Source of the DNA: a virus
Taxonomy: Duplodnaviria > Heunggongvirae > Uroviricota > Caudoviricetes
Strand: one strand, 5' to 3'
DNA length: 29,584 nucleotides
Virus record (IMG/VR): IMGVR_UViG_2537561934_000015
The notes beneath the pieces are model-generated. The model saw only the letters and a list, made by a program, of their open reading frames with translations. It searched no databases and was not told where the DNA came from. The stretch's first letter is position 1; each line of letters starts with the position of its first letter. Position numbers and translations under genes: made by a program. Of the stretch, positions 13,435-29,584 are shown piece after piece.

Positions 13435-15258
13435 ATGAGTACCACAACACGAAAATTTAAAACCGTTATCACCGATACGGGTGCAAAAAAATTAGCTCAG
13501 GCAGCCGCGCCAGATGGTAAGCCTGTCCGCCTGACTCATATGGCCGTGGGCGACGGTGGCGGCACGTTGCCCACACCAGACAGTAAGCAGACCCGTCTGG
13601 TGCATGAGGTGTGGCGACACACTGTTAATCGCGTCATCCTGGACGCAACACATCAGAACCGCATTATTGCGGAGCTGGTTATTCCTCCTGAAACGGGCGG
13701 ATTCTGGATCCGGGAAATTGGTGTATTTGATGAGCACGGCGATTTGATCGCGGTGGGCAATACTGCGGAAAGTTACAAGCCAGCCGTTGCCGAAGGATCC
13801 GGACGTGCACAAACATTTCGCACCATTCTGACCGTATCCAGCACTGCCACCGTGGCGCTTACCGTGGATAACACCATGGTGATGGCCACAGTGGATTACG
13901 TGAATGACAAACTGAAAGAACATGAACAGTCACGACGTCACCCGGACGCCTCGCTGACCGCAAAAGGCTTTGTTCAACTCAGTAGCGCCACTAACAGCAC
14001 GTCTGAAACGCAGGCTGCAACGCCGAAAGCAGTAAAAGCCGCGTATGACCTGGCTAACGCAAAATATACCGCTCAGGACGCCACGACGGCACGAAAAGGG
14101 ATAGTCCAGCTCAGTAGTGCCACCAACAGCACGTCTGAAACGCTGGCCGCGACACCGAAAGCGGTTAAGGTGGTAATGGATGAAACGAACAAGAAAGCGC
14201 CCTTAAACAGCCCGGCGCTGACCGGAACGCCAACAACACCAACTGCGCGACAGGGAACGAATAATACCCAAATCGCAAGCACGGCTTATGTGATGGCCGC
14301 GATTGCCGCACTTGTAGACTCGTCGCCTGACGCACTGAATACGTTGAACGAGTTAGCGGCGGCGCTGGGCAACGACCCGAATTTTGCGACCACCATGACT
14401 AACGCGCTTGCGGGTAAGCAACCGAAAGATGCCACCCTGACGGCGCTGGCCGGGCTTGCTACTGCAGCAGACAGGTTTCCGTATTTTACGGGGAATGATG
14501 TTGCCAGCCTGGCAACCCTGACAAAAGTCGGGCGGGATATTCTTGCAAAATCGACCATTGCCGCCGTTATCGAATACCTCGGTTTACAGGAAACTGTAAA
14601 ATTAGCTTCGGAAGCGTTATCAACATATGGCGGGGTGGTTAACGGTGATGTGATTATCAAGGGCATTCTCTCGTTAATTGGGAATGAATTACTTATTGAA
14701 AAAGATAATGGCTTTTCTGGTATTCACATCAGAAACAAGAGCACGGTTGCAGGGAGTGCAAATGGAGTCGACTTTTCATTTGGCGGTGCGATTATGTCGT
14801 CTCTCATTTGTGGAATAATGGAAAATGGCGCGAACTACATAGACGTTGCATTGTCTCCGGCAGGCAATATTTCTGACCGTCGTCTGCTTGCATTTACTTT
14901 GGATGGAAATATCAGGCAGTTAATTCCCCGGAATGGATGGAGCATTCAGGGATATACAAAAAACAGTGATTTTACCCAGGCGATGGCTGATGCTGGTTGG
15001 GTACGTTTTCCAAATGGCATCATTTTTCAATGGTGTTGGGGGAATACTGATGCCAGTGGCTGGGCACCTGCCCCGTTTCCTGTTGGCTGGCCTGTTCGTT
15101 GCTTTGGTTTGTTAGCCTGTAATGTTGCTGGTGACTCGATAGCAAGTGCAATTGCGGGTGTTAAAAGATTAAATGATCGCGATATGCAGGTCACGTTAAT
15201 GGAAAGGTCTGGGGGTGCTGTTTCTAAACCATTCTTCTGTATTGGTGTGGGGTGTTAA
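13435..15258 (+). CDS. H: Tail fibre protein (P2 gpH-like), current C-terminal variant
   Basis: 607-aa ORF. Has a conserved N-terminal part and tandem fibre repeats (QLSSATNSTSET..AATPKAVK twice). The C-terminal third lies inside the invertible segment. Confidence 0.9.
   Translation: MSTTTRKFKTVITDTGAKKLAQAAAPDGKPVRLTHMAVGDGGGTLPTPDSKQTRLVHEVWRHTVNRVILDATHQNRIIAELVIPPETGGFWIREIGVFDEHGDLIAVGNTAESYKPAVAEGSGRAQTFRTILTVSSTATVALTVDNTMVMATVDYVNDKLKEHEQSRRHPDASLTAKGFVQLSSATNSTSETQAATPKAVKAAYDLANAKYTAQDATTARKGIVQLSSATNSTSETLAATPKAVKVVMDETNKKAPLNSPALTGTPTTPTARQGTNNTQIASTAYVMAAIAALVDSSPDALNTLNELAAALGNDPNFATTMTNALAGKQPKDATLTALAGLATAADRFPYFTGNDVASLATLTKVGRDILAKSTIAAVIEYLGLQETVKLASEALSTYGGVVNGDVIIKGILSLIGNELLIEKDNGFSGIHIRNKSTVAGSANGVDFSFGGAIMSSLICGIMENGANYIDVALSPAGNISDRRLLAFTLDGNIRQLIPRNGWSIQGYTKNSDFTQAMADAGWVRFPNGIIFQWCWGNTDASGWAPAPFPVGWPVRCFGLLACNVAGDSIASAIAGVKRLNDRDMQVTLMERSGGAVSKPFFCIGVGC
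14564..14594. repeat. Left gix-like recombination site (inside H)
   Basis: The reverse complement of 14576-14594 equals 17344-17362 exactly (GTTTCCTGTAAACCGAGGT, 19 bp). Flanks extend to about 31 bp with 3 mismatches. Lies within H codons ...EYLGLQETV.... Confidence 0.85.
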
Positions 15259-15260
15259 TC

Positions 15261-15737
15261 ATGTCCAGTAAAATATTCTATAGTGCCAGGAATAATACGT
15301 TTTTCTTTGAATCCATGAAACCGGACTATGAAAAATCAGGCGCATGGCCTGACGATTTGGTGGCAGTCACAAACGATATGTATGAAGAGTTTACGGGAAG
15401 ACCGCCAGAGGGAAAGAAGAGAGGCAGTGATGAATCTGGTTTCCCCGCATGGATTGATGTATCAGAACCAGCAACAGAGCAGTTAATCGCATTAAAAGAG
15501 CAGAAGAAAAAGGATTTAGCGGGGATTGCGAACACAGAAATTGCCTGGCGGCAGGATGCTGTTGACGCAGGGATGGCGACAGAAGCAGAAATCACTGTGC
15601 TGGCTGAATGGAAAAAATATCGAGTGCTACTTATGCGTATTGATACATCAACCGAGACGGATATTGAGTGGCCCGCTGTTCCAGACGGACAAAGCGGCAA
15701 AGAGAGCAGTGCAGAGGATGTGAAAACGTCGCTATAA
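15261..15737 (+). CDS. G: Tail fibre assembly chaperone (gpG/Tfa-like)
   Basis: 158-aa ORF immediately after H. A similar gene lies convergently at 15864-16304. Confidence 0.75.
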   Translation: MSSKIFYSARNNTFFFESMKPDYEKSGAWPDDLVAVTNDMYEEFTGRPPEGKKRGSDESGFPAWIDVSEPATEQLIALKEQKKKDLAGIANTEIAWRQDAVDAGMATEAEITVLAEWKKYRVLLMRIDTSTETDIEWPAVPDGQSGKESSAEDVKTSL

Positions 15738-15842
15738 TGTCATCACAATTATTATCATTTTTGTTATTTTGTATTTCCTTGCTCTCCGCAGCCATGTGGA
15801 TATGGAAAAGCCTGGATGACCACAAAAGCCTGAGTAAAATTA

Positions 15843-15860
15843 AGGCCCGATAACGGGCCT
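15843..15860. terminator. Bidirectional hairpin between the convergent tail fibre assembly genes
   Basis: AGGCCCG-ATAA-CGGGCCT, flanked by T-rich sequence on both strands. Confidence 0.5.
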
Positions 15861-15863
15861 TTC

Positions 15864-16304
15864 TCATTCTGGTTGTTCGGGGAATGTTACCGGCAGGCTG
15901 GAGGTGTCTGTGGATTCGACTTTCTGCGCATAGAGCATCCACTCGGTTAATTTTTGTTTATTCTCGTCGGAAATGACGCCCAGCTGTAGCTGAGAGTCCC
16001 ACAGCTGGGTTTTATCCCTGACGAGCTGCAGCAGGCTCTGCTTTTCATTTTCCGCTTGTTGCCTTTGCTCCTCCTCGGTATAAGTTCGCTTTACCACTAC
16101 GCCATCTTTGAACATCCATTTACCCGAAATGTCAGCACGGCGATTTGCTGTAATATCAGGTAATTCAACGACGCTTGCGCCTTCCGGATTAATTGCTGAA
16201 ACATCCTTTTCAATACAAATAATAACGCCGTTATGGTCATAGACCATTTTCAACGTATCAGGCCGGAAATTCTTTTGTTCCTCATACCAGTTTTTTCCCA
16301 TCAT
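15864..16304 (-). CDS. Alternative tail fibre assembly chaperone (tfa')
   Basis: 146-aa ORF on the minus strand inside the invertible segment, convergent with tfa. Same size class as tfa and in the Mu U' position; similarity to tfa was not checked. Confidence 0.7.
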
Positions 16305-16400
16305 CTGAATAAAGCCATTTGATGTTAAATTGCTTTGTTAGCTGGTATTGCTCTTTTGTTTTAGGATTGCCAGCAGTAATGTTTTTTAAGTGCATCATAA

Positions 16401-17363
16401 TTAAATACTCCCCGCGTTATACCACGTTCCATTAATGCAATACTGAACTGGCCTTGCCTGTGTTGTATCAATTAATTCATCACGGTTTCCGTTAACTGAA
16501 CCCGTAACGACATAACCTGACCTGTCAGACCAGCCGGGACCATTCCATGTCTGAACAGATGACAGACCGCCCAGACGAATACCTGTAATAAACTTTGAGT
16601 TACATTCCGCTTTGGTATATGCACCAACATCTCCCGCAGAGGGCTTGCGGGTCGTGGTGTAAAACTCTGACCAGTTAGCCTCAAATCCATAACCATCACG
16701 CGCTGAACGATAAAAAATACCGCCATTCCTGTAATTCACGCGGAACTGTACGGCAGGGCAACTCCCCGTATTCATATTGAAGTGGAGGATTAATGCTGTT
16801 GCGCCATTGATATCTGCGTTATAAACCCCGCTATTCCAGTTCCAGCCAACAGCTTTATCATTTGCAACCCTGCTTCCTGTTTGCCCTAAAGCAAATGCAG
16901 GCTGCTGGTTTTTCGTGTTGTAGTCTCGTCGCCAGCCAGGAGCATAAGCATCACCATGATTAATATAGGTGAATTGAGCGTTAGTAATTCCGCCGCCGCT
17001 GGACGTGCTCGGCGTGGTAACGCGTATGGTCATTGCGCCGCGAGTGCCAATAACTTCCACCACAGCACCTGCAAGACAAATATTTCCGCAACCTGTATCT
17101 GTAATGACCTTATTATTTGCATAAGCCCATGAGCCTTTGCACATCCAGTAAGGATGGTTAAATGCCCCCTGACTCTCCAGCCACGAAATGAATTGTGCGG
17201 TTGTCCAGGCCTGACTATCGCCACCAATATTCAGCCCTGCACTATATGCGCGGCAGGCCCCAATATTTTTGGTGAAGGTATCTTTTCCCGGAATATCTGC
17301 GCCGTTCTGGTTTTTTTGTAATGCTCCAGAAGCCTGATTTACCGTTTCCTGTAAACCGAGGTT
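16401..17363 (-). CDS. Alternative tail fibre C-terminal cassette (start-less; expressed after inversion by fusion to the H N-terminal part)
   Basis: The minus-strand frame is open from 17363 (a stop lies just upstream) down to the stop at 16401. It begins [16 protein letters not shown]..., matching the H junction ...EYLGLQETVKLASEALS. No start codon at the 5' end, as expected for an Sv'-type cassette. The six-frame track shows only the internal Met at 17144. Confidence 0.8.
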
Positions 17364-17374
17364 TTAGATAATGG
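17344..17374. repeat. Right gix-like recombination site
   Basis: GTTTCCTGTAAACCGAGGTTTTAGATAA, close to the recalled Mu gix sequence (TTCCTGTAAACCGAGGTTTTGGATAA). Lies about 50 bp upstream of the invertase start. Confidence 0.85.
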
Positions 17375-17425
17375 TCGATTTTGGCACGCATGGCATGATT
17401 GGCGCTTTTAAACAGGAGATCCAGA

Positions 17426-18016
17426 GTGCTGATTGGCTATGTAAGGGTATCAACAAATGACCAGAATACAGACCTGCAACGAAACGCTCTTGTTTGTGCA
17501 GGATGTGAACAAATATTTGAAGATAAATTAAGCGGGACAAAGACAGACCGACCGGGATTAAAACGCGCTTTAAAGCGCCTTCAACAAGGTGACACGCTGG
17601 TTGTCTGGAAACTGGATCGCCTCGGGCGAAGCATGAAACATCTGATTTCTCTCGTCGGGGAACTACGGGAGCGAGGGATTAATTTTCGCAGTCTGACCGA
17701 CAGCATAGATACATCTTCTCCAATGGGGCGTTTTTTCTTCCACGTGATGGGTGCCCTGGCTGAAATGGAACGTGAATTAATTGTAGAGCGTACACTGGCC
17801 GGTCTGGCAGCAGCACGCGCACAAGGACGCACAGGCGGACGTCGCCCGAAGCTGACAAAAGAACAGAATGAGCAAATAGCAAGGCTGATTAAAAACGGGC
17901 ACGACAGAAAACAACTGGCAATAATTTACGGCATTGGTACATCGACGATTTATCGTTACCACCCCGCAGGAGAATCAAGCGGAACAATTGAGAAGAGTAA
18001 ACAAAATAACCGCTAA
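17426..18016 (+). CDS. Serine DNA invertase, Gin/Pin/Cin/Hin family
   Basis: From GTG 17426 (AGGAG 7 nt upstream) the protein reads (M)LIGYVRVSTNDQNTDLQRNAL...VVWKLDRLGRSMKHL..., near-identical to the recalled Gin/Pin N-terminus with the catalytic Ser in VRVST. The six-frame track start at 17399 is upstream of the likely start. Confidence 0.9.
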   Translation: MLIGYVRVSTNDQNTDLQRNALVCAGCEQIFEDKLSGTKTDRPGLKRALKRLQQGDTLVVWKLDRLGRSMKHLISLVGELRERGINFRSLTDSIDTSSPMGRFFFHVMGALAEMERELIVERTLAGLAAARAQGRTGGRRPKLTKEQNEQIARLIKNGHDRKQLAIIYGIGTSTIYRYHPAGESSGTIEKSKQNNR

Positions 18017-18039
18017 TCTGGCCATTAGCGGTTTTTGTG
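18009..18039. terminator. Bidirectional terminator between the convergent invertase and U genes
   Basis: ACCGCTAAT-CTGGCC-ATTAGCGGT followed by TTTTTGTG on the plus strand and by a T-rich run on the minus strand. Confidence 0.6.
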
Positions 18040-18044
18040 TTAAA

Positions 18045-18539
18045 TCAGAACAGCCCTTTAACTGAACTGGCCGCGCTGTTAAGAGATGATGTCACTTTAT
18101 CTTTGAAGCCGGACAGCATATCGCTGAACGATGAGGATTGCAGACGCTCCCGCAAATCCTCATCACAGCGTTCAAGGGTCAGTGAAAACTCTATCTTTTT
18201 CGCCTTGCCGTAGCGATCAAACTCAGAACGGGTCGTATTCGTTTCAGTCAGTACATACATGCCGTAAATCTGCCCGACGCCATCAATCAGAGGCCAGGGG
18301 CGTCCTGTATATGCCTGCGTGGTCAGCAGCGACAGCGACACTTCGCCACCTGTAATTTCAGGATAAAGCACGCCTGAAAGCACGATGCGATCATCACCTG
18401 CACCGATATACTGCCAGCTTGCTGAACGGTTAACGCGTTCATTTTTCACATGCCGCCAGCTTTTGTTTTGCTGTAACTGCTGATGCGGCAATGTGCGCAG
18501 CTCAAAAACAAACATGCCGTAGATCATCATCATGGCCAT
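18045..18539 (-). CDS. U: Tail protein (P2 gpU-like)
   Basis: 164-aa minus-strand ORF immediately downstream of T in the reading direction. gpU size is about 159 aa. Confidence 0.8.
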   Translation of the reverse strand: MAMMMIYGMFVFELRTLPHQQLQQNKSWRHVKNERVNRSASWQYIGAGDDRIVLSGVLYPEITGGEVSLSLLTTQAYTGRPWPLIDGVGQIYGMYVLTETNTTRSEFDRYGKAKKIEFSLTLERCDEDLRERLQSSSFSDMLSGFKDKVTSSLNSAASSVKGLF

Positions 18540-18545
18540 GACTCC

Positions 18546-21272
18546 TCAGTCTTTATCGTAAAAACTGCCACGCCCGGCACGGGCGCGCCGTTCCATTTCT
18601 GCCCTGACCATTTCGCCAACCAGTTTCGCCAGTTCGCGGGGATTCTGTGTAACAACGTTATGCAGATGAACATGAATTTCACCGCCAAATCCGGAGGCAA
18701 CAGGCTCCCGGTTACGGGAAGTTGCAGGAACTGATGCCACTGGCGATCGTATAGCCTCCGCCACCGGGCGGGAGCTGGCCGCAACAACAGGGACCAGCGC
18801 CGGAGGCAGCGGAGCCGGAACCACGGGTGTGATAGTAATTGCGGGGGCAGGCTTACTGACCTGCGCAATCTTCCGCTCCTGCCACTCCCCACGAACAGCA
18901 AGTGCGCGGGGCAGGTTCTTAAAGACAATATCGCCGGGGCCAATGAGTTTTTTCGTCTCATCAACCAGCTTACCTGTGTTATCAGCAATTTTGCTGAGTC
19001 TGCGTAGCGTACCGGTATTGTTGTCTGTGAGCGGTTTGTTGTCTCTGGGTTTATCGCCTTTTTTGTCGTCGACCTTATCTGACGGGGCCGGGCCGGGAGT
19101 CCATGGTTTCTGAACCATTTTCTTGAGAACCGGATCCCATTCCCACAATACAGGAGCCTTTGAAGCGTTCTCTATTTTCTTTCTCGCCCGCTCCGCTTCA
19201 TCCGGAAGCACTCCGAGCTTTTCAAGTATCCACGCCAGTGAATCCATCAATGCTTTTGTTGGCGTCAGGACAAGCTCTATCGCTCCACCGAGTACCCTGC
19301 CGAATACCTCGCCAGCACTGGTACATTTATCCAGCGTTTCCTTGCTGGACTCCATCGGTGACAGCAGCGATTTAAACCAGTTAAAGACCTGAATAATCCC
19401 ATCGCGCACGACATCAAAAACTGGACCGAACCGTTCAAAGGTTTCGCGCAACGGAGCCAGCCGTTCCATAATCCCACTGAACACCCCTGCATAAAACGCC
19501 TTGATGGGTTCCCAGTATTTCCAGATGAGAACCGCCGCAGCCACAAACGCAGCAGCAATCAATCCGACCGGGCTGAGCAGCGCCCCGATAGCGCCCCCCA
19601 GTAACGAAACGGAACCCGTCACCATTCCCCATAGTGCTGGCAGGAGCCTGACAGCATTCATTGATCCGGTCAGGAGGGAAAAGCCAAGACGCAGTTTTGC
19701 CAGCGGGCCAGCAAGCACACCAATAGCCAGCGACAACGAGCCAACCGTTGCAGTCATTGCCAGCAACGCACCGCCTGCTATCAGTAGCTGGCGCGTCAGT
19801 GTCGGATGGGCCTGCGCCAGCGCCGTCACCTTCGATACCACCCGCGTGAGCCACTGCGTGACAGAACGCAGCGGACCGTCAATCAGATCTGCAATGCGGA
19901 TGCGCAACCCTTCCCATGCACTGCCGAGTGATTTCAGATCGCCGTCAAGGTTGTTGGCCATAACCTTTGCCGTGCGTTCAGCCTCACCGCGTGCGCCTTC
20001 AAGTTCTTTTCTCAGTTTAGGTAAGGATCCGTCACCTGCCGCATCAACGAGGGCCATAAATGATGTGAAAGCCTCTTCTCCGGCAATGTCCTTAAAGAAC
20101 GATACCCGATCAACTTCTCCGTATTTGCGGGTGGCTTTATAAAGGTCAGTCAGCAGATCTTCCATCGGGCGCATTTTGCCCCCGGCATCCGAGACAGACA
20201 CGCCCAGCTCTTTCAGCGCCTCTGCTGCCGCCTTTGGCGGTGATGCCAGACGAGCCAGGCTGGCACGCATTGCCGTCCCGGCATCACTTCCCCTGATACC
20301 CATATTCGCCAGCACGCCCGCCATCGCTGCGGCCTGCTCCAGCGATATTCCCAGCTTACCCGCCACCGGACCTGCATATTTCATGGTTTCGCCCAGTGCG
20401 CGAAGGTCAGTGTTGGTACGGGTAAACGCTGCAGTGAGTGTGTCACCGACCCGGTCCATCTGGTCAGCAGAAAGGCCGAACTGCGTCAGGATATTTGAGC
20501 CAATATCCGCCGTCTCGCCGAGATCCATACCGCCAGCCGTTGCCATGCTCAACACGCCGGGAAGCGCAGCCTGAATGGCCTGCGGTGTGAAGCCAGCCAT
20601 TGCAAGAAATGCCTGCCCACTGGCGGCATCGCCTGCGGTGAACTGCGTTTCAGAGCCAAGTTTTAACGCCTGCTCACGCAGCGCCTTAAACTGCGGGCTG
20701 TTCTGGTCGATTCGCGTCAGCGCCTGAACGCGGGACATCTCTTTCCCGAACCCGATCGCAGGCTGCAAAAAACGCCCGGCAGCATAGCCGCCCGCCGCTG
20801 CCGCACCTGTTGCCAGTGCACCACCTGTTTTCAGTTTTCCCGCGGTTTCCTGCGCGCGCGAATACCGCTCACGCGCCCGCGTTACACGCGCAAGCGCCTG
20901 CCGTTCGCGTTCAAGCTGGTTGTTGTACTGTTCGGTGCGTCTGATGGCCTGCTGGATGGTGTTATCACTGCCTGTCAGGGAAATGCCGTGGCGTTTCAGC
21001 TCTCCGCCAAGCTCCCGCATTTTCTGAATCTCCCGTGTGCGCGATTCATTCAGGCGTTCAAGCCGGGTGCTTAACTGCTGCATCAGCTTTTGTTGTTTTT
21101 CGCTGAGCACTGTACCCGTGCGTTGTAACTGATTAAGGGCGTTAAGCTGGCGTCGCGCTTTCAATATGCCAGCATCCGCTTTACTGACAGCGTCACGGGC
21201 GCGCTCAAATGAACGCGCCTGACGCTCGAGATTTTTTGATCGCCCCCTGCGTTCGCTGGATGGAGTCACCAA
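18546..21272 (-). CDS. T: Tail tape measure protein (P2 gpT-like)
   Basis: 908-aa ORF with coiled-coil-rich N-terminal part (QLERERQALARV...), Ala/Gly-rich central segments and hydrophobic stretches, positioned after E/E'. Confidence 0.9.
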   Translation of the reverse strand: MVTPSSERRGRSKNLERQARSFERARDAVSKADAGILKARRQLNALNQLQRTGTVLSEKQQKLMQQLSTRLERLNESRTREIQKMRELGGELKRHGISLTGSDNTIQQAIRRTEQYNNQLERERQALARVTRARERYSRAQETAGKLKTGGALATGAAAAGGYAAGRFLQPAIGFGKEMSRVQALTRIDQNSPQFKALREQALKLGSETQFTAGDAASGQAFLAMAGFTPQAIQAALPGVLSMATAGGMDLGETADIGSNILTQFGLSADQMDRVGDTLTAAFTRTNTDLRALGETMKYAGPVAGKLGISLEQAAAMAGVLANMGIRGSDAGTAMRASLARLASPPKAAAEALKELGVSVSDAGGKMRPMEDLLTDLYKATRKYGEVDRVSFFKDIAGEEAFTSFMALVDAAGDGSLPKLRKELEGARGEAERTAKVMANNLDGDLKSLGSAWEGLRIRIADLIDGPLRSVTQWLTRVVSKVTALAQAHPTLTRQLLIAGGALLAMTATVGSLSLAIGVLAGPLAKLRLGFSLLTGSMNAVRLLPALWGMVTGSVSLLGGAIGALLSPVGLIAAAFVAAAVLIWKYWEPIKAFYAGVFSGIMERLAPLRETFERFGPVFDVVRDGIIQVFNWFKSLLSPMESSKETLDKCTSAGEVFGRVLGGAIELVLTPTKALMDSLAWILEKLGVLPDEAERARKKIENASKAPVLWEWDPVLKKMVQKPWTPGPAPSDKVDDKKGDKPRDNKPLTDNNTGTLRRLSKIADNTGKLVDETKKLIGPGDIVFKNLPRALAVRGEWQERKIAQVSKPAPAITITPVVPAPLPPALVPVVAASSRPVAEAIRSPVASVPATSRNREPVASGFGGEIHVHLHNVVTQNPRELAKLVGEMVRAEMERRARAGRGSFYDKD

Positions 21273-21346
21273 ACTGCCCCATCAGGCGGCGGGCGTTTTC
21301 GGCAGGCCGGGTCAGCCTGTCAACGGCGCTGAAAGCGACCCGGATA

Positions 21347-21885
21347 TCAAGAGTCTTCATTGTCTGCATTCCCGCTGCGAAGTGCCGCCCGCTCACGCCA
21401 GCTAACCACTTCGCCGGGCGTCATCATGAAGATTTCGGCGGGCGACCAGTTAAAAATGGCGGCAATATCCGCCACCAGATCTTCGATGTGCTCAAAGCAC
21501 ACCAGGGTGATTACGCTGCCGTCTCCTGCACGCTCTTCGCGCCAGAGTCTGGCTCGCTCATAAAATTTACAGCCACAGCGCACAACTGAATAAAATCGCG
21601 TGACGACATTTTTTTAATCATCACTTCATCCAGTCGTGGCGAGGTCACGCGAGGCAACAGCGTGAACATGGTATCCGCTTTCAGATTCAGCACATCAGAC
21701 AGCGACAGACCACGCAGGGATCCAGCCTGCTCAATAGCCCCGGTGATCTCCACATACGTGATTTTTTCGCCACCACGCTCAATTGGTCGGGTCAGTTTTA
21801 CGCCACGTTCGACAGCCATATCCTCACCTGCCGTCACATCATCCGCCACGGTGTTATTCCGGGTTTCAGTATTGATGTTTTTCAT
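21347..21885 (-). CDS. Tail assembly chaperone frameshift product (gpE+E'-like), made by programmed -1 frameshift near 21562-21568
   Basis: The minus strand reads GTA AAT TTT ATG in the E frame, giving the X_XXY_YYZ heptamer A_AAT_TTT. The -1 frame is open from 21613 to 21347 and overlaps the last 17 codons of E. Confidence 0.6.
21511..21885 (-). CDS. E: Tail assembly chaperone (P2 gpE-like)
   Basis: 124-aa ORF with AAGGAG ribosome-binding site, between the tube gene and T. An overlapping -1 frame continues to 21347. Confidence 0.75.
   Translation of the reverse strand: MKNINTETRNNTVADDVTAGEDMAVERGVKLTRPIERGGEKITYVEITGAIEQAGSLRGLSLSDVLNLKADTMFTLLPRVTSPRLDEVMIKKMSSRDFIQLCAVAVNFMSEPDSGAKSVQETAA
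21562..21568 (-). promoter_or_regulatory. Candidate -1 ribosomal slippery heptamer AAATTTT
   Basis: Only canonical slippery heptamer in phase with E inside the E / -1 frame overlap. An A7 run at 21609-21615 is an alternative shift site. Confidence 0.5.
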
Positions 21886-21940
21886 CAGTTGTCTCCTTTT
21901 CAGTCAGAGGCGACGCACCGCGCCGCCTGCATATTACTTA

Positions 21941-22453
21941 TCAGCCAAGCCCGAGTGCGGAACGAATGCGGTCAGGCACAATGTCCTTGCCGTCCTTCCG
22001 GTAGATGTGGTTCAACAGGTCGATTTCCCACAGCGGGCGATCGTTAACGCTCAGCTTGTAGTAGGTGTTTTTGACAGCGTAAGTGTGTGATGTGGCTTCG
22101 CCCTGCTTGGCTTCCCCCATATCAATTTCCGTCACACGCCCGCGCATCTCGATTTCATACAGATCGCTTTCTGCATCGGTGTAGTATTCACCCGCAAAAC
22201 GCAGTAGCGTGTCGTCAATCGTGCCGCCATACTTCAGGAACAGCTCACGAACTGCGCCCCCCATGACAAAGCTCGCATCAAGCGCGGAGTCGTCCAGACC
22301 GAGATCAATACTTACCGCACCCATCATGCCACCACCCCGGTAGCTGTCGGTTTTGCGCGTCAGCTTAGGCAGAGTGACGGACGTCACCTTACCCACTTCG
22401 TTTTCACCATCCACAAACAGCGTAAAAAAGCGAAGATGTTTTGGTACAGCCAT
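21941..22453 (-). CDS. FII: Tail tube protein (P2 gpFII-like)
   Basis: 170-aa ORF, gpFII size (172 aa), directly after the sheath gene. Confidence 0.85.
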   Translation of the reverse strand: MAVPKHLRFFTLFVDGENEVGKVTSVTLPKLTRKTDSYRGGGMMGAVSIDLGLDDSALDASFVMGGAVRELFLKYGGTIDDTLLRFAGEYYTDAESDLYEIEMRGRVTEIDMGEAKQGEATSHTYAVKNTYYKLSVNDRPLWEIDLLNHIYRKDGKDIVPDRIRSALGLG

Positions 22454-23637
22454 CAGGCACCTCCCAGCACCGCAAATGCGGGACCAAAGAATTCATCGGT
22501 AAACGTCTGGTAAAGCTCCATGTCTTCCAGTGGCGGAACGGGCGTATATTTGTAGCGAATACGCACACGCCCCTGACGTAAATCCGTGGTGCCGTTATCC
22601 ACCACGTCATACCAGCACGACGCCCCAATCAGTTTCCCGGCTGTCACCAGCGAATCCAGTTTTGCCCTGACGGCACTGATAACATCTTTCACGTTCGCAG
22701 GCGTCAGTGGACTGTCGATGGTTTCAAACTGCGCTTCCGCAATTGAATCAGCCAGCACCTGTGCGGTTCGGGTATACACCTCAAAGATGTAGGCGTTCGT
22801 TTCCGGTGTGCGGTTGCCCCAGAAGCGGAACCCATTGCGACGAATAATGGTCGTGATTTCTTTGTTATTGAGGCTGTTGGCATCACTGTCTTCGGCCTGC
22901 AACGACCAGAACACATGCCTGGACATTCCCAGCACATTTTTAACCGGAACGTTGGACAGCGATTTGTGCCAGCCCTGCTCATGGTCAATGTACGCACGAA
23001 GGCCGCACGCATAAGCAGGCGCGGGGAACGTTTCGTTTTCGCCACTTTTCGGGTTGTAGGCGATGAAGTCCGGCCATAAGAGCATCACTTCACGTTCGTT
23101 GAATTTCTGGCGGTAGGTAATCGCCTCAGCCATCGTGTTACTGCCGTGACATGAGGCATACACAAACGCGCGCAGCTTACCCGCAATCACGCACAGGGAT
23201 TTTGTCACCGCCTCCGTGTCCAGCTCCGGCGCGGCCAGAATACGCGGACGGTATCCGATGCTTTCATCCTGCTCTGCAACAAGCAGCGCATACATCCCCG
23301 TATAGCTGCCGTCAGATTCAGAACCACCGATAACCAGTTGATCCTGCGTCTTACCGCCTTCTTCTTTGTGTTCAGCCACGCGAACGACGATCACCTTTGT
23401 GCTCACCTGGTCTGCGATGGCCTTAAGCGCACGATAAAGCGTCCCCGTTGTCCCGCATTTTCCCAGCACGTCATTGACGCGGGTCAGCAGTGTGGGCTTG
23501 TTCAGCGGGAACAGCTCCGCATCCGCATCATCCGCCGTTGCCACGATACCGATAACGCTGGAATCAACATCATTAATCGCTGTTACCAGGTCGGTACTTT
23601 CCGTGACACGGGCACCATGAAAACGAGTTTCACTCAT
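22453..23637 (-). CDS. FI: Contractile tail sheath protein (P2 gpFI-like)
   Basis: 394-aa ORF. Motifs FPLNKP, KLRAF, YRQ.F..RE, GWHK.LSNV, RR.GFRFWGNRT, YTRTAQV and YKYTPVPPLE match recalled gpFI. Confidence 0.9.
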   Translation of the reverse strand: MSETRFHGARVTESTDLVTAINDVDSSVIGIVATADDADAELFPLNKPTLLTRVNDVLGKCGTTGTLYRALKAIADQVSTKVIVVRVAEHKEEGGKTQDQLVIGGSESDGSYTGMYALLVAEQDESIGYRPRILAAPELDTEAVTKSLCVIAGKLRAFVYASCHGSNTMAEAITYRQKFNEREVMLLWPDFIAYNPKSGENETFPAPAYACGLRAYIDHEQGWHKSLSNVPVKNVLGMSRHVFWSLQAEDSDANSLNNKEITTIIRRNGFRFWGNRTPETNAYIFEVYTRTAQVLADSIAEAQFETIDSPLTPANVKDVISAVRAKLDSLVTAGKLIGASCWYDVVDNGTTDLRQGRVRIRYKYTPVPPLEDMELYQTFTDEFFGPAFAVLGGA

Positions 23638-23793: not shown

Positions 23794-24903
23794 ATGACCG
23801 ACACCACCATGCAATTGCTCAGTCAGAGCACAGACCCCGTGAAAATGCCGGATTTTGATATTCTCGCGGAGGGGGAAACGCTGTCCGGTCGTGGCAGAGC
23901 GCCTGATGAGTCTGTCACTGACCGACAACCGGGATTTGAAGCGGTACCAGCTCACCATCACGCTGGATGATGCGGATGGTCAGTTGCAGCTACCGCCACG
24001 GGGCGCGCGCCTGACGGTTCTCATTGGCTGGAAAGGAGAACCGCTGACAGAAAAAGGCACTTACATTGTTGATGAAATCGCTCACGAAGGACCGCCGGAC
24101 AGGCTGACGGTTTCAGCCAGAAGCGCAGATTTTCGGGATGAATTTAACGTTAAACGTGAGGTGTCCTGGCATGATGTGACCGTTGAGCGCGTGGTATCCG
24201 CCATCGCTCATCGGTATGGTCTGAAACCGCAAATCAGCGAAATGCTGATGGATATCGAAATCGACCACGCCGACCAGACCGAAGAAAGCGACATGTCCTT
24301 CCTTACGCGCATGGCGGAAATGCTGGGCGCAATCACTACGGTAAAAAGCGGTAATCTGTTATTCATCATGCCAGGTGGTGGCGTGAACGCACTGGGCCAG
24401 CCGTTGCCATCGTTCGCCATCACACGCAGCAGCGGCGATCGCCATCAGTTCCGCATTGCTGACCGCGAAGCGTATACGGGGGTACGCGCTTACTGGCTTG
24501 ATCTTAATTACGGGAAAAGAAAAAAGTCAGCGTGAAACGCCGCAAACCGCCAAAACCCAAAAAGGAGAAAAGCAGCAGCCGTGAAGGTGATTATATGGAA
24601 GGCGCAGAAGGCAATGTGTTTGTGTTACGCAAGACTTATCAGAACGAGCAGGCAGCAAGACGCGCAGCGGCGGCAAAATGGCAGCAGCTACAACGCGGAG
24701 CCGCATCATTCTCCATCACGCTGGCGCGTGGACACGCAGAACTCTATCCCGAAATGCATGGCACGGTGAAAGGCTTCAAAAGTGACATCGACAATCAGGA
24801 CTGGATTATTGCAAAAGCTGAGCACACCATTGATAACAGCGGCTTTACCACGCAGCTTGAGCTTGAGGCAAAAATCCCGGAATGGATAGCAGAAACAGAG
24901 TGA
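23794..24903 (+). pseudogene. D: Tail/baseplate hub gene D (P2 gpD-like), split over three frame segments
   Basis: Frame 1 from ATG 23794 (ribosome-binding site AGGGAGGGA) reads MTDTTMQLLSQSTDPVKMPDFDILAEGETLSGR and then goes out of frame. Frame 2 (open 23843-24535) carries the central part VAERLMSLSLTDNRD...YWLDLNYGKRKK. Frame 1 again (open 24508-24903) carries the C-terminus ...EGNVFVLRKTYQ...WQQLQRGAASFS...GFKSDIDNQDWII...GFTTQLELE. The frame changes lie near 23880-23895 and 24510-24530. Confidence 0.75.
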
Positions 24904-25023
24904 GCAACTTAGACATATTAGCTCAAACTTAAACTGGCAAGTTTACAGTATAGAATTAAACATAAACGACGGTCCGCTCCGTGTCAGAAGCGGACTTTGT
25001 CATCCCTATGTAAGGTTGATTGC

Positions 25024-26046
25024 TTAATACGCATTTAATTTAAATTTGTATTTGCCTTCTATGTAATGGATAAATTCAATTATGCTTTTTTCTATCGCAT
25101 CTAATATATGAATATATCCATCCCGATTTAAGGTCCTATCCAACTCAAAGTGATGAACTATCCCATGTCTATATTGTATGATTTCAGAAATTCGATTCTC
25201 AAGAAAATCAACTGATTTTCCAATTCTTTTTTTCTTATAAAGAATCGCTCTCACATCTATATCCAGCCACTCTTTATATGCTTTGTTTAGGTGGGTTAAG
25301 TTTTGAAAAGTGTAATTTCTTGCAATAACACTTTCTATTGAAATATTTCCTTTCTCTATCTCAAGCAGAATATCAAAATCAACTTTTTGCTTATACGATG
25401 TTCTTTTTGCTATTGCGAAAGGATCGTACTTTATAAGTATTTGAAAAGCTCTAGAGAAAAAGTATTCAAACATAGCAACCGCAAAAGGTACTAATCCATT
25501 ATATATAACTCTACTGGGATCCATACATTGCATGTAATCAAAGTATTCGGATAAGCCGCCATCTTCCGGTAGGTTTAATTTAATAGAAGGTTCAGGTAAG
25601 GCATGTTTAACAGCGGAAATCTCATGATGGACATGATTAAATATTGAAGAAATGCCACGACTGATCGGACTACTAGAATCCTTCCATAGAGGAGCGTACC
25701 TATTTTTCCCATAATCACCTATAAGTGTTCCACCAAAAAGACTCCTTGCGCCTTTTAGAACATCATTAAGCATTTTTACATCATGCCAACTAGCGCTATA
25801 TAAATTACGCACATGCAATGCCCATTTATTACCAGATATGTGTAATTCGTCATTTGAAACAGGATATATATCAGCCGAAACTCCATCTGTAGATTTGAAG
25901 TCCGTATCATCAAACCAAGAGTAATTCAACGTTCCTTGGGGCCATTCCCACAAATGTTTACACCTTTTAAAACCTAAATTTTCAAGGTAATTTTTAAGTT
26001 CGTTTCTAGTTGCTTTTTTAGGGTACAGCGTTATATCTCTTCCCAT
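25024..26046 (-). CDS. Hypothetical 340-aa protein, AT-rich cargo gene inserted between D and ogr; C-terminal HEPN-like R-x4-H motif
   Basis: Long ORF with AGGTGA ribosome-binding site, visibly AT-rich against GC-rich structural genes, and on the opposite strand to its neighbours. C-terminal region ...ENRISEIIQYRHGIVHHFELD... contains R-x4-H. Confidence 0.7.
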   Translation of the reverse strand: MGRDITLYPKKATRNELKNYLENLGFKRCKHLWEWPQGTLNYSWFDDTDFKSTDGVSADIYPVSNDELHISGNKWALHVRNLYSASWHDVKMLNDVLKGARSLFGGTLIGDYGKNRYAPLWKDSSSPISRGISSIFNHVHHEISAVKHALPEPSIKLNLPEDGGLSEYFDYMQCMDPSRVIYNGLVPFAVAMFEYFFSRAFQILIKYDPFAIAKRTSYKQKVDFDILLEIEKGNISIESVIARNYTFQNLTHLNKAYKEWLDIDVRAILYKKKRIGKSVDFLENRISEIIQYRHGIVHHFELDRTLNRDGYIHILDAIEKSIIEFIHYIEGKYKFKLNAY

Positions 26047-26237
26047 GCTTTATTCACCTGATATACAATATTTTAAATTTTAACTATTATGAACGTATGA
26101 ATTTTCACATTGGATGTATGGAAGTTCAACAACTATTGAAAGTTCAATTTTCACTCTTCGCACAGAGCGAGCTGTTAGTTGGAATTAGGGATCGTACAAT
26201 CTAGAATAGCGGCAACACCACGTTAAGGGAGGTCGCT

Positions 26238-26588: not shown

Positions 26589-26822
26589 GTGGAAAGGCCC
26601 CGGAAAACATTTCTGTTTAACCGAGGCCCTAACCGCATTACCTTGACAAGTGAAAGGTTAGCGCCTCTCCGGAAAAGGAGCAAGTGCTATGTCGCAAAAA
26701 TCGCTTACGGCTATCACGTTCTGCGTGACGGTAATCCTCATCATCTGGATGTTGCACGGTTCGCTGTGCGAAATACGGATGAGTTTCTGGGGAGCGGAGT
26801 TTGCGGCGTTCTTACAGTGTAA
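26589..26822 (+). CDS. mok-like overlapping leader ORF of the hok-type locus
   Basis: 77-aa ORF in a different frame, starting upstream of the hok-like ORF and overlapping almost all of it, as in hok/mok loci. Confidence 0.4.
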   Translation: MERPRKTFLFNRGPNRITLTSERLAPLRKRSKCYVAKIAYGYHVLRDGNPHHLDVARFAVRNTDEFLGSGVCGVLTV

Positions 26823-26829
26823 GCAGTAA
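26689..26829 (+). CDS. Hok/Gef-family type I toxin (46 aa)
   Basis: ATG 26689 with AAAGGAG at 26674-26680. Product MSQKSLTAITFCVTVILIIWMLHGSLCEIRMSFWGAEFAAFLQCKQ has the Hok TM helix plus SLCEIR and AAF motifs (compare Hok ...[24 protein letters not shown]). Confidence 0.7.
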   Translation: MSQKSLTAITFCVTVILIIWMLHGSLCEIRMSFWGAEFAAFLQCKQ

Positions 26830-26860: not shown

Positions 26861-27090
26861 AATCGGTTGCCAGGGTAAGGTCGATAAGGCACCCTATCTC
26901 ACGGCTCTAAATGCAAAAATTCCATGAAACTGTGGGATTTTTGCATCACTACTGATACAGATCTGCCCTTCTATATGTCTCACTCTATACCAGCTAATCA
27001 ATTGACACTTATCAATAAAAAAAAATCTGATAAAATCAAAATGTTTTGTAACAAATATCAACTCGTATTGATCCAAAGGAGGCGGATTAC

Positions 27091-27423
27091 ATGGCATTAA
27101 TCAAATGTCCTGAATGCCAGAAAGAGGTGAGCGATTCAGCATTGTATTGCCCTGCTTGCGGTAAACAAATAAAAAAACTTAAGCGTTCATTTTTTGGAAA
27201 GCTCATTAAGTGGATATTTATATTATTTAATATTTTTATGATCTATACGCTTTTAGTTGGACTGGGAGGCACTAGTGAAATAATAAATAATGCTACATCC
27301 GATGCCGAAAAAGCCGGTGCAGTTATTGGTACAGGCTTAGGTTTAATTACCATTGGAAGTTTATGGGTTATTGGCGATATCATTATCGGAATTTTAGTAT
27401 TTCTTACTAAACCAAAAGGATAA
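27091..27423 (+). CDS. Zinc-ribbon membrane protein (110 aa)
   Basis: CPEC...CPAC zinc ribbon at the N-terminus, then two hydrophobic helices. Ribosome-binding site AGGAGG. AT-rich. Confidence 0.6.
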   Translation: MALIKCPECQKEVSDSALYCPACGKQIKKLKRSFFGKLIKWIFILFNIFMIYTLLVGLGGTSEIINNATSDAEKAGAVIGTGLGLITIGSLWVIGDIIIGILVFLTKPKG

Positions 27424-27427
27424 CAAA

Positions 27428-28321
27428 ATGAAAAATATAATTTTTTCTATAGGTGCATCATTTATATCAATTAGTGTACTGCCTGTTCACGCAGCAACTG
27501 AACATAATAACTTCAATGCAGTACTCCAGTGCCGAGCAATAGAAAATAATAAAGACAGACTTTCTTGTTACGATAAGTCAATACAACCGACTCGAACGAA
27601 AGTTGCTGAAAAATTCGAAAGCAGAGATCAATGCCCTGATGAGAAAGATGATGACAGACGTTTATCTTGTTATGATCGTTTTTTTTCTCCAACATTTACT
27701 CCATCTGTAAACTCAAAATCTAAAACGGAAAAGCCAGTAACAACAGAGGCTCAGCAACCAAATCTTTCTGAGATATCTAAATGCCGAGCAGAAAATGATA
27801 AAGAAGCCAGACTAAACTGCTACGATAAACTATTCCCACAGGATAAAGCTGTTCAAGCTGAATCAAAATTAGAGAAAGCCACAGATGTAGGAAAATGGCA
27901 CACATCCATTACTACATCGCCAATTGATGATTCGAAAAATGTAATTTTATCGTTAGAAAGTGATGATTATATCAGAACTCCATTTGGAGAAGCGGTTACT
28001 CCCACTCTGTTTATAGCTTGCCGAGAAAAGAAAACCGAAGTATTTCTTAGTTGGGATGTATATTTAGGCCTTGAACAAACCAGCATGCTTTATCGTCTTG
28101 ATAAACAGAAAGCAGTTGAGCGAAACTGGCTAGTATCTACAGATACAAAGGCTGTTTTTTATAAAGGTAATGACATTGATTTCATCCGAAAACTAGCCAA
28201 CTCAAACAAAATGTATACAAAAATAACTCCTTATAATGAGAGCCCTGTAAGTGCAACTTTCAATTTAAACGGCCTGTCAAACGCGCTAAAACCACTTCAA
28301 GCTGCTTGTAACTGGAAATAG
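27428..28321 (+). CDS. Secreted repeat protein (297 aa) with signal peptide and three RL(S/N)CYD motifs
   Basis: N-terminal signal peptide MKNIIFSIGASFISISVLPVHA. Repeats DRLSCYDK, RRLSCYDR and ARLNCYDK, followed by a C-terminal domain. Starts 4 nt after the zinc-ribbon gene, so probably co-transcribed. Confidence 0.6.
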   Translation: MKNIIFSIGASFISISVLPVHAATEHNNFNAVLQCRAIENNKDRLSCYDKSIQPTRTKVAEKFESRDQCPDEKDDDRRLSCYDRFFSPTFTPSVNSKSKTEKPVTTEAQQPNLSEISKCRAENDKEARLNCYDKLFPQDKAVQAESKLEKATDVGKWHTSITTSPIDDSKNVILSLESDDYIRTPFGEAVTPTLFIACREKKTEVFLSWDVYLGLEQTSMLYRLDKQKAVERNWLVSTDTKAVFYKGNDIDFIRKLANSNKMYTKITPYNESPVSATFNLNGLSNALKPLQAACNWK

Positions 28322-28330
28322 CATAAATCA

Positions 28331-28392
28331 TGTGGCTTAGCCACAATCACAGATAACACAAAGCCCGTGAAAACGGGCTTTGTGTTATCTGT
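28331..28392. repeat. Two adjacent perfect palindromes/hairpins
   Basis: TGTGGCT-T-AGCCACA at 28331-28345. ACAGATAACACAAAGCCCG-TGAAAA-CGGGCTTTGTGTTATCTGT at 28349-28392 (19-bp arms). No T-run follows. Confidence 0.6.
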
Positions 28393-28588
28393 AACTCGAA
28401 AATGTGGTCACTACGTGGACACGTGCTGATATAAATCCTTTTATATCAATAAATTAAATCATCATTTTTTTCATCAACAAGGATTTTCACGTTTGTGTTA
28501 CCTGTATGAGACGAGAGTTAACCGGACAAGTGTGCCATAATCTCGCGGCCAGGCATACTTGCGAAGATTTCAGGTATAAGGATACGTA

Positions 28589-29584
28589 ATGATACAACCT
28601 ATTTCCGGCCCTCCTCCTGGGCAGCCACCAAGTCAGGGAGATAACCTGCCGTCTGGCGCGGGCAATCAGCCTTTATCCAGTCAGCAACGTACTTCGCTGG
28701 AAAGCTTAATGACGAAAGTGACCTCACTGACGCAACAGCAAAGAGCAGAACTGTGGGCGGGTATCAGGCACGATATTGGTCTGTCGGGAGATTCACCGCT
28801 GCTTTCGCGTCACTTCCCTGCCGCTGAACACAACCTGGCGCAACGTCTGCTGGCCGCGCAAAAAAGCCATTCTGCCCGCCAGCTTTTAGCGCAATTAGGG
28901 GAGTATTTACGTCTGGGGAATAATCGTCAGGCGGTCACGGATTATATCCGTCATAACTTTGGTCAGACGCCGCTGAATCAGCTCTCACCGGAGCAATTAA
29001 AAACCATTCTCACCCTGTTGCAGGAAGGGAAGATGGTTATTCCGCAACCGCAGCAGCGCGAGGCGACCGACCGTCCTTTATTACCGGCGGAGCACAATGC
29101 GCTCAAACAGCTGGTGACCAAACTTGCGGCGGCAACGGGGGAACCCAGCAAACAGATCTGGCAATCGATGCTGGAACTTTCCGGGGTGAAAGATGGCGAG
29201 TTAATTCCAGCGAAACTGTTTAACCATCTGGTGACCTGGCTGCAGGCGCGCCAGACGTTAAGCCAGCAAAATACGCCGACGCTGGAATCACTACAGATGG
29301 CGCTAAAACAACCTTTAGATGCCAGTGAATTGGCGGCGTTATCGGCATATATCCAGCAAAAATATGGCCTTTCTGCGCAATCATCGCTTTCTTCTGCCCA
29401 GGCCGAGGATATTCTTAATCAGCTTTATCAACGGCGGGTTAAAGGGATTGATCCGCGTGATATGCAACCGCTGCTTAATCCTTTTCCACCGATGATGGAC
29501 ACGTTGCAAAATATGGCAACGCGTCCCGCGCTGTGGATACTGTTAGTCGCGATTATCCTGATGCTGGTCTGGCTGGTTCGTTAG
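28589..29584 (+). CDS. Hypothetical Pro/Gln-rich protein with C-terminal transmembrane anchor (331 aa)
   Basis: ORF with AAGGA ribosome-binding site. N-terminus PPPGQPPSQG, Q/L-rich helical body, C-terminal hydrophobic helix ALWILLVAIILMLVWLV. Stop at the last base of the window. Typical enterobacterial composition. Confidence 0.6.
   Translation: MIQPISGPPPGQPPSQGDNLPSGAGNQPLSSQQRTSLESLMTKVTSLTQQQRAELWAGIRHDIGLSGDSPLLSRHFPAAEHNLAQRLLAAQKSHSARQLLAQLGEYLRLGNNRQAVTDYIRHNFGQTPLNQLSPEQLKTILTLLQEGKMVIPQPQQREATDRPLLPAEHNALKQLVTKLAAATGEPSKQIWQSMLELSGVKDGELIPAKLFNHLVTWLQARQTLSQQNTPTLESLQMALKQPLDASELAALSAYIQQKYGLSAQSSLSSAQAEDILNQLYQRRVKGIDPRDMQPLLNPFPPMMDTLQNMATRPALWILLVAIILMLVWLVR

Follow-up and report, generated by a model that had tools for sequence, protein, structure and literature searches.

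A probable two-state Gin-type inversion switch in the tail-fibre locus of a P88-like Escherichia coli prophage

The tail-fibre locus described here is, with a probability that we put at about 90%, a two-state inversion switch of the Gin type, of the same kind as the Mu G and P1 C segments, carried by a P88-like E. coli prophage. The window, i.e., the whole stretch of 29,584 nucleotides that was analysed, contains two gix-like crossover sites in inverted orientation that enclose a 2.78-kb segment (14579-17359). The left site lies within the reading frame of the fibre gene H, where it encodes the peptide ..VIEYLGLQE.., and the right site precedes a serine invertase gene. The features of the locus are as follows:

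13435-14580, plus strand: Hc, constant part of the tail-fibre gene H, up to the crossover dinucleotide (Pfam PF12571, PF03406)
14567-14592, plus strand: left crossover site, gixL-like, TTATCGAATACCTCGGTTTACAGGAA, 2 mismatches to Mu gix
14581-15258, plus strand: Sv, the variable H C-terminus expressed at present, 225 aa, with a gp53-like C-terminal domain (Pfam PF21882)
15261-15737, plus strand: tail-fibre assembly chaperone, U/G-like, 158 aa, expressed orientation (Caudo_TAP, E = 4.9e-34)
15842-15861, unstranded: GC-rich hairpin AAGGCCCGTTATCGGGCCTT, separating the convergent chaperone genes (terminator scan)
15864-16398, minus strand: alternative chaperone U' (94-96% nucleotide identity to Mu/P88 U')
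16401-17357, minus strand: S'v, silent, start-less alternative fibre C-terminus (translation; Pfam gp37_C match)
17346-17371, minus strand: right crossover site, gixR-like, TTATCTAAAACCTCGGTTTACAGGAA as read on the minus strand, 1 mismatch to Mu gix
17429-18016, plus strand: Gin-family serine DNA invertase, 195 aa (Pfam Resolvase PF00239, E = 2.3e-50, and HTH_7 PF02796)
18008-18033, unstranded: terminator-like hairpin, bidirectional, separating the invertase gene from the convergent tail gene U (terminator scan)

When the whole 29.6-kb window was searched with the Mu gix 26-mer TTATCCAAAACCTCGGTTTACAGGAA, exactly two matches were found at up to 3 mismatches, and 0 of 100 shuffled controls gave any match to the 26-bp gix sequence. 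Both sites sit in inverted arms (14564-14619 and 17319-17374) of 56 nt, 80% complementary in the repeat search, which have in common a perfect 19-bp core, ACCTCGGTTTACAGGAAAC, at 14576-14594 and 17344-17362. A preliminary description of this DNA had reported such a perfect repeat within a larger imperfect one, with one copy inside H and the other upstream of a Gin/Pin-family invertase; the core was found and all coordinates given there proved accurate, the left copy is in the H frame, and the Resolvase plus HTH_7 gene begins 58 nt past the right crossover site. The central dinucleotides match, with TC at 14579-14580 in the left site and its complement GA at 17358-17359 in the right site. A point against the switch is that both mismatches of the left site fall in its outer half. 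No third gix-like site is present in the window, whether up to 3 mismatches are allowed to the 26-mer or up to 2 to the 13-bp core. A multiple-inversion shufflon, which needs at least three crossover sites, is therefore rejected; one of the EPEC prophages and p15B Min are such multi-site shufflons, whereas this locus has two sites only.

The constant part of H carries a tail-collar N-terminal domain followed by Phage_fiber_2 repeats, and its region is 95-96% identical to P88 H at the nucleotide level. In the present orientation, H encodes a 607-aa fibre made of a 382-aa N-terminal part and the 225-aa Sv, with the PF21882 match at residues 524-604. Translation of the minus strand confirmed the earlier proposal of a start-less fibre C-terminus with the same junction peptide: the S'v open frame begins with LGLQETV, as in H and in frame with it, and ends in ...NAGSI and a stop. 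At the amino-acid level, S'v shares 96% identity with the variable region of Mu S'; it is unrelated in sequence to Sv. The exchange of the H C-terminus that had been predicted from these elements holds in silico, since inversion keeps the frame and yields an uninterrupted 700-aa ORF in which an unrelated C-terminus of 314 aa takes the place of the final 225 aa of H.

Each variable tip is accompanied by a chaperone gene. The 158-aa chaperone of the expressed orientation starts 3 nt past the H stop codon. The second chaperone gene that had been proposed is present, with a Caudo_TAP match, but its reading frame is interrupted here. When U' is aligned with its counterparts in Mu, P88 and an E. coli relative, one extra base appears in a GGG-A6 run (~16291-16299); it breaks U' into a 38-codon 5' ORF and a 146-aa ORF (15864-16304), and tblastn places the frame change at residue 35. 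The 146-aa ORF, compared with 177 aa for full-length U', still spans the entire Caudo_TAP profile. With this +1 frameshift, a complete chaperone may be missing from the flipped state. The hairpin between the two convergent chaperone genes likely acts as a terminator for either orientation.

The invertase gene starts 58 nt past the right site with a GTG codon, as in Mu, and has AGGAG 7 nt upstream. Its product is 81% identical to Mu Gin (98% over the first 120 aa) and 96% identical to the P88 invertase, and its best PDB matches are the Gin entries 4m6f and 3uj3 (E ~1e-99). The catalytic serine is kept (VRVSTNDQ) and the N-terminal motif LIGYVRVSTNDQ is identical to that of Mu Gin, whereas the C-terminal DNA-binding third departs from Gin and follows P88. 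The enzyme is intact. Nucleotide identity to Mu is 97-100% over 17372-17687, which covers the leader and the initial ~260 nt of the gene, and so the sequence of the Fis-dependent recombinational enhancer, which we take from the Mu literature to lie within the 5' part of gin, should be retained. The locus combines several features of the Gin/Cin/Pin/Hin (Din) group, namely a resolvase plus HTH protein with its catalytic serine, two inverted 26-bp sites and both orientations in relatives.

In the mechanism that we propose, the serine invertase would pair the two inverted gix-like sites, and strand exchange at the central TC/GA dinucleotide would flip 14579-17359; by analogy with Gin, host Fis bound to the enhancer in the 5' end of the invertase gene would be needed. 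Transcription and translation would begin in the fixed part of H. Since the left site lies within the H frame, each orientation would then join the same 382-aa shaft to a different tip with its own chaperone. The present state would give the 607-aa fibre with the gp53-like tip and the 158-aa chaperone, and the flipped state a fibre of 700 aa that ends in a Mu S'-type tip, together with U'. The two tips would probably differ in receptor specificity.

Both orientations occur in near-identical prophages, so that the outcome which the preliminary description had named as refuting, a single orientation ever seen together with an inactive invertase, is not what is observed. E. coli 720632 (NZ_CP025842, 1.31-1.34 Mb) carries the same prophage; its flanks match at 99.1% identity along 12.8 kb on one side and 7.6 kb on the other, and the segment is inverted. 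Both cassettes are present, the rare gp53-like one at 99.9% identity, and its U' differs in containing an IS600. The annotated 700-aa fibre of this strain is 98% identical to our predicted fusion, gap-free and with an identical junction. As a point against the prediction, the exact fusion is absent from a collection of 15 billion proteins, in which the 607-aa fibre is present on 46 contigs, and the 720632 fibre is the nearest real protein. In a prophage ~95% related to that of the window, the sister isolates 2020N21-110 and 2020N21-110-15 agree at 100% in the flanks and differ only by a clean inversion of a 3.1-kb segment. The flipped junction occurs in 225 complete E. coli genomes and the native arrangement in 207. 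No complete E. coli genome was found to cover at least 80% of the native 4.7-kb query, which reflects the rarity of the gp53-like cassette and not an unusual architecture: this cassette was found in one phage record (Mu_3F6, 96.6%) and in 2 of 5426 complete E. coli genomes. In this particular strain, switch activity is presumed.

The window is a draft contig, and this is all that would speak for a chance inverted repeat or an assembly artefact with no recombination system behind it. We regard such a reading as having a negligible probability and as already refuted by the shuffled controls, the flipped prophage of 720632 and the sister isolates. The sites match Mu gix, and the same architecture is found in P88, in Mu and in hundreds of complete genomes.

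From its sequence, the host phage can be recognised as a P88-like (Xuanwuvirus, Peduoviridae; P2-family) E. coli prophage. The window is colinear with P88 at 94-96% nucleotide identity (blastn, tblastn), and the FI-FII-E-T-U block and V-W-J-I-H-G are encoded on opposite strands, which is the Xuanwuvirus arrangement and contrasts with the gene order of P2. The preliminary description had taken P2 as its framework, and this has to be abandoned. It had also placed the switch at the Z/fun position. The module does lie directly downstream of G, but, with the FI-FII-E-T-U block on the opposite strand, it is located between G and the 3' end of U and not in a G/FI gap like that of P2's fun(Z). The genes follow each other in P88 as they do here (H, G, G', H', invertase, then U on the minus strand). 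P88 differs in carrying an unrelated cassette in place of window positions 14600-15789 (the expressed tip and its chaperone) and an extra 132-nt repeat unit in H. Its annotation lists two fibre genes, two chaperones and one DNA invertase; the P88 paper mentions neither the invertase nor inversion (PMC5285337).

The likeness to the Mu G segment extends to the logic of the locus, with a constant 5' part of the fibre gene outside and two convergent cassettes of variable tip plus chaperone inside. Of the 26 bases of each crossover site, 1-2 differ from Mu gix. Identity to Mu is 97-100% across the right site, the gin leader and the initial ~260 nt of gin, and ~94% in nucleotides for U'; the alternative C-terminus shares 96% of its amino acids with S'. 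Mu, however, is a transposable phage with the constant part Sc, whereas here the module belongs to a P2-family myovirus with a P2 H-like constant part, the segment measures 2.78 kb and the C-terminal third of the invertase is of the P88 type. Mu also lacks the gp53-like expressed tip, which the Mu-like prophage Mu_3F6 has. By architecture, the locus can further be likened to Fels-2 fin, to two prophages of EPEC E2348/69 and to P1 Cin, e14 Pin and p15B Min, in which a serine invertase adjoins a fibre gene and inversion swaps the C-terminus of the fibre.

We found single-base indels in U' (~16291-16299), in T (21232) and in D (23889, 23931, 23945 and 24515), the last gene being split into at least two ORFs. 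If the T and D frameshifts are real, there would be no functional tails and the switch would have no host-range consequence in this strain. It is possible, though well short of even odds, that the locus is a fossil switch in a decaying prophage, where inversion is phenotypically silent and the locus is heading for loss. All six indels are absent from P88 and from E. coli 720632, and all fall in the right-hand 8 kb while the left 12.8 kb has none, which is consistent with decay. The U' insertion is also missing from the loci L006-L009, L011 and L012, and the U' and T insertions are missing from 5 of 6 other assemblies that encode an identical H (L013, the sixth, stops short of both positions, and D lies outside all of these loci). 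On the other hand, 4 of the 6 indels are homopolymer-length changes, typical of sequencing error, and they occur in one draft assembly only; a fossil switch is further disfavoured by the integrity of the invertase, of the two sites and of the expressed fibre with its chaperone.

Tail-gene frameshifts beside an intact invertase could also be taken to mean that the invertase and the alternative fibre fragments serve the bacterium, through a chimeric adsorption-blocking fibre or through action in trans on other invertible segments. There is a precedent in E. coli cryptic prophages, where PinQ is reported to act on the e14 P segment (StfE2), with a chimeric fibre that blocks adsorption of other phages (PMC12529663). 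We nevertheless consider a host-domesticated function highly improbable here: the sequence holds no pointer to it, the module sits in a complete, colinear late region of the P88 type, relatives are inducible phages (P88, PMC5285337) and the neighbouring non-P88 ORFs gave no PADLOC match to defence families. It is likewise unlikely, if slightly less so, that a tail-defective prophage, given real T, D and U' frameshifts, keeps its switch for the host, which might then yield an adsorption-blocking fibre protein, as with PinQ and StfE2 of e14, or an invertase acting in trans. At the same low level of probability, and as a separate matter, the rare gp53-like tip may recognise an uncharacterised receptor.

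The Mu G, P1 C and e14 P segments form the classical inversion system, and because its mechanism has been textbook knowledge since the 1980s, a two-state Gin-type switch at this locus opens no new question. The module is already annotated in P88 and has been seen flipped in close relatives. For P2-like prophages, both orientations of invertible fibre segments coexist in cultures (PMC4272514; PMC7953296); inversion at the population level was measured in P2-like prophages of EPEC (PMC4272514) and inferred for Fels-2 (PMC7953296), so that the switch as such is already known.

For annotation, a two-state switch means that the 607-aa H would be only one of two products of the locus, that the start-less minus-strand ORF would be a functional exon and not a pseudogene, and that assemblies of such strains would show one state of a mixed population. 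The locus is also a clean case of an entire host-range module, made up of the sites, both cassettes and two-thirds of the invertase gene from its 5' end, that is common to a transposable phage (the Mu family) and a P2-family phage at 94-100% identity. With two orientations and two receptor-binding tips, a lysogen population would release particles of two host ranges.

The tail-fibre gene H of this prophage ends in an invertible segment, and the module is seen in both orientations among near-identical prophages. The preliminary description had proposed such a switch; its observation is confirmed and its interpretation is correct in substance, with the inverted repeat recovered by a repeat search exactly where it had been placed.

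Features of the invertible module, on the given strand
13435-15258: H, 607 aa, with a tail-collar N-terminal domain, Phage_fiber_2 repeats and a gp53-like C-terminal domain
14564-14619 and 17319-17374: arms of the inverted repeat, 56 nt, 80% complementary, 2699 nt apart
14576-14594 and 17344-17362: perfect 19-bp core, ACCTCGGTTTACAGGAAAC
14567-14592: left gix-like site, TTATCGAATACCTCGGTTTACAGGAA
15261-15737, plus strand: Caudo_TAP chaperone gene, 3′ of H
15842-15861: GC-rich hairpin between the two chaperone genes
past the hairpin, minus strand: U′, the second Caudo_TAP gene
beyond U′, minus strand, ending NAGSI* at 16401: start-less open frame of the silent alternative C-terminus (S′v), opening directly after a stop codon
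17346-17371, minus strand: right gix-like site, TTATCTAAAACCTCGGTTTACAGGAA
17429: GTG start of the invertase gene, 58 nt past the right site, with AGGAG 7 nt upstream

Alignment with phage Mu revealed in both arms a 26-bp site nearly identical to the Mu crossover site gix (TTATCCAAAACCTCGGTTTACAGGAA), and the left and right sites were the only matches when the whole window was scanned with the Mu 26-mer (≤3 mismatches). A chance origin of the repeat is rejected, since none of 100 dinucleotide-preserving shuffles of the window matched the 26-mer. The same scan found no third gix-like site in the window; therefore, the locus is a two-state switch, and a shufflon is rejected for a locus with just two sites. 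The left site falls within H, where it encodes ..AAVIEYLGLQETV.., and when the strands are exchanged in silico between the central TC/GA dinucleotides, at 14579-80 and 17358-59, a 2.78-kb stretch is inverted and the resulting fibre, H′, is 700 aa long with an uninterrupted frame. The alternative fibre C-termini are unrelated to each other (E = 1.1), as are the two chaperones apart from their common Pfam family. H also contains two 93-nt direct repeats, 132 nt apart, at 13944-14168, which are Phage_fiber_2 repeats with 78% identity; the H of Escherichia phage P88 has one repeat unit more, which explains part of the length difference.

Three independent lines of observation establish flipping. 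E. coli 720632 has the same prophage; its flanks, compared over 12.8 kb on one side and 7.6 kb on the other, are 99.1% identical, and what lies between both sites is in the opposite orientation. The fibre annotated there is 700 aa long and aligns with the in silico H′ at 98% identity, gap-free and with an identical junction. The isolates 2020N21-110 and 2020N21-110-15 carry a ~95% related prophage; the two isolates match each other at 100% identity over flanks of 2833 and 2267 nt, and the 3124-nt segment in between is inverted. Finally, 225 complete E. coli genomes match the in silico flipped junction (constant part of H, S′v, U′) at a coverage of 80% or more, and 207 have the native arrangement (U′ and S′v on the minus strand, followed by the invertase and gpU). 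Published work is in line with this: clonal cultures of EPEC E2348/69 show coexisting inversions in two P2-like prophages (PMC4272514), and a fibre inversion beside fin in Fels-2 tells LT2 from LT7 (PMC7953296). In the flipped prophage of E. coli 720632, the chaperone now expressed is disrupted by an IS600 (16141-17941 of that locus) inside U′, at the equivalent of window position ~16234.

The invertase starts at the same position as Mu gin and has Gin as its nearest solved structures; its identity to Gin is 81% overall, rising to 98% across the first 120 residues. The preliminary description had named a single orientation together with an inactive invertase as what would count against it; instead, the segment is flipped in E. 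coli 720632 and the catalytic serine, that of YVRVST, is kept. Identity to Mu reaches 97–100% over 17372-17687, given as the right site, the leader and the gene's first ~260 nt; in Mu, the equivalent stretch contains the Fis-dependent enhancer. The gene is a mosaic: its 5′ two-thirds are 94–100% identical to Mu gin, and its 3′ third (17790-18016, the DNA-binding domain) is ~55% identical to Mu and 96% identical in amino acids to P88, so that a recombination breakpoint within the gene is implied.

The classical inversion mechanism is the best-supported one. The invertase would synapse the two inverted sites, probably activated by host Fis through an enhancer in its own gene, by analogy with Gin; the active-site serine would cleave at the central dinucleotide, and the strands would be rotated and religated. 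The segment excludes the H promoter, its start codon and codons 1 to 382, so that each orientation is expected to express one tip and one chaperone and to silence the other pair. The sites, the preserved frame, an intact enzyme and the two orientations in near-identical prophages are demonstrated here; Fis dependence, receptor specificity and activity in the window's strain we infer.

The system itself is well known, being essentially the Mu G segment and gin grafted on a P2-type fibre. The G segment and gin are ~94% identical to 15789-~17790, which spans the segment's right half and two-thirds of the invertase gene from its 5′ end, and the variable part of Mu S′ shares 96% amino-acid identity with the silent C-terminus. 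P88 (Xuanwuvirus, Peduoviridae) is colinear with the window from 1766 to 24913 at 94–96% nucleotide identity but differs at 14600-15789, the expressed variable tip and chaperone; its annotation already lists, in matching order, two genes each for fibres and assembly proteins as well as a DNA invertase. The module is abundant in E. coli genomes and its flipping is documented in P2-like prophages; novelty is confined to the rare gp53-like tip cassette, found in only one of 50,697 phage records, the Mu-like prophage Mu_3F6 (96.6%), which matches the whole segment 14567-17371 at 94.5%, and in 2 of 5426 complete E. coli genomes.

The module had been assigned to the Z/fun position. It does follow directly after G, like fun(Z), but the slot is a different one, bounded by G and the 3′ end of U, because P88-like phages carry the FI-to-U block on the minus strand and D on the plus strand. 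In P2, which has no invertase, H and G are followed by a minus-strand fun(Z) and then by FI-FII-E-T-U-D in plus orientation. The window's tail block FI-FII-E-T-U (18045-23637) is on the strand opposite V-W-J-I-H-G and D (23794-24903), an arrangement that is typical of the genus and common to P88; P2 has all of these genes on a single strand.

Other slots also vary. A 1.29-kb insertion (24914-26201), which neither P88 nor E. coli 720632 has, separates gpD from the ogr/hok region. It encodes a 340-aa ORF (25024-26046, minus strand) with only a sub-threshold Pfam match to HEPN (RiboL-PSP) and no PADLOC match, perhaps a gene for cargo or defence occupying a variable slot of the P2 type. The stretch 410-1765, upstream of the portal gene, is a further such cargo slot and lies between the partition-like genes and gene Q; it has short ORFs only and matches neither P88 nor the 720632 prophage, where a DUF3800 gene takes its place. 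P88 homology ends beyond a hok-like gene (26689-26826), and 26900-29584 encodes a zinc-ribbon protein, a VasI-like (T6SS) protein and one further ORF with weak, sub-threshold Pfam matches only (GemA, Gluconate_2-dh3).

The window is identical, at the same coordinates, to contig AQEW01000013.1 of assembly GCA_000354735.2, and protein names give E. coli as the source. Relative to P88 and E. coli 720632, single-base indels in U′, T and D are private to the window. A base inserted in a GGG-A6 run (~16291-16299, in the stretch 16285-16304) splits the minus-strand U′ into a 38-codon and a 146-aa ORF and is absent from Mu as well; the tape-measure gene T has an additional T at 21232 that shifts its N-terminal ~40 codons; and four indels (23889, 23931, 23945, 24515) break D into at least two ORFs, 23855-24535 and 24532-24903. 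Four of the six change homopolymer length, which suggests sequencing error; the indels reflect either assembly errors or a tail-defective prophage. The U′ and T insertions are missing in five of six other assemblies encoding an identical H (the sixth stops before both sites, and none of these loci reaches D). The six indels are confined to the rightmost 8 kb of the prophage, and the 12.8 kb to the left is free of them. The 146-aa U′ ORF covers the whole Caudo_TAP profile and might be functional if translated. If the indels are real, the prophage would be tail-defective and the switch would have no host-range consequence in the window's strain.
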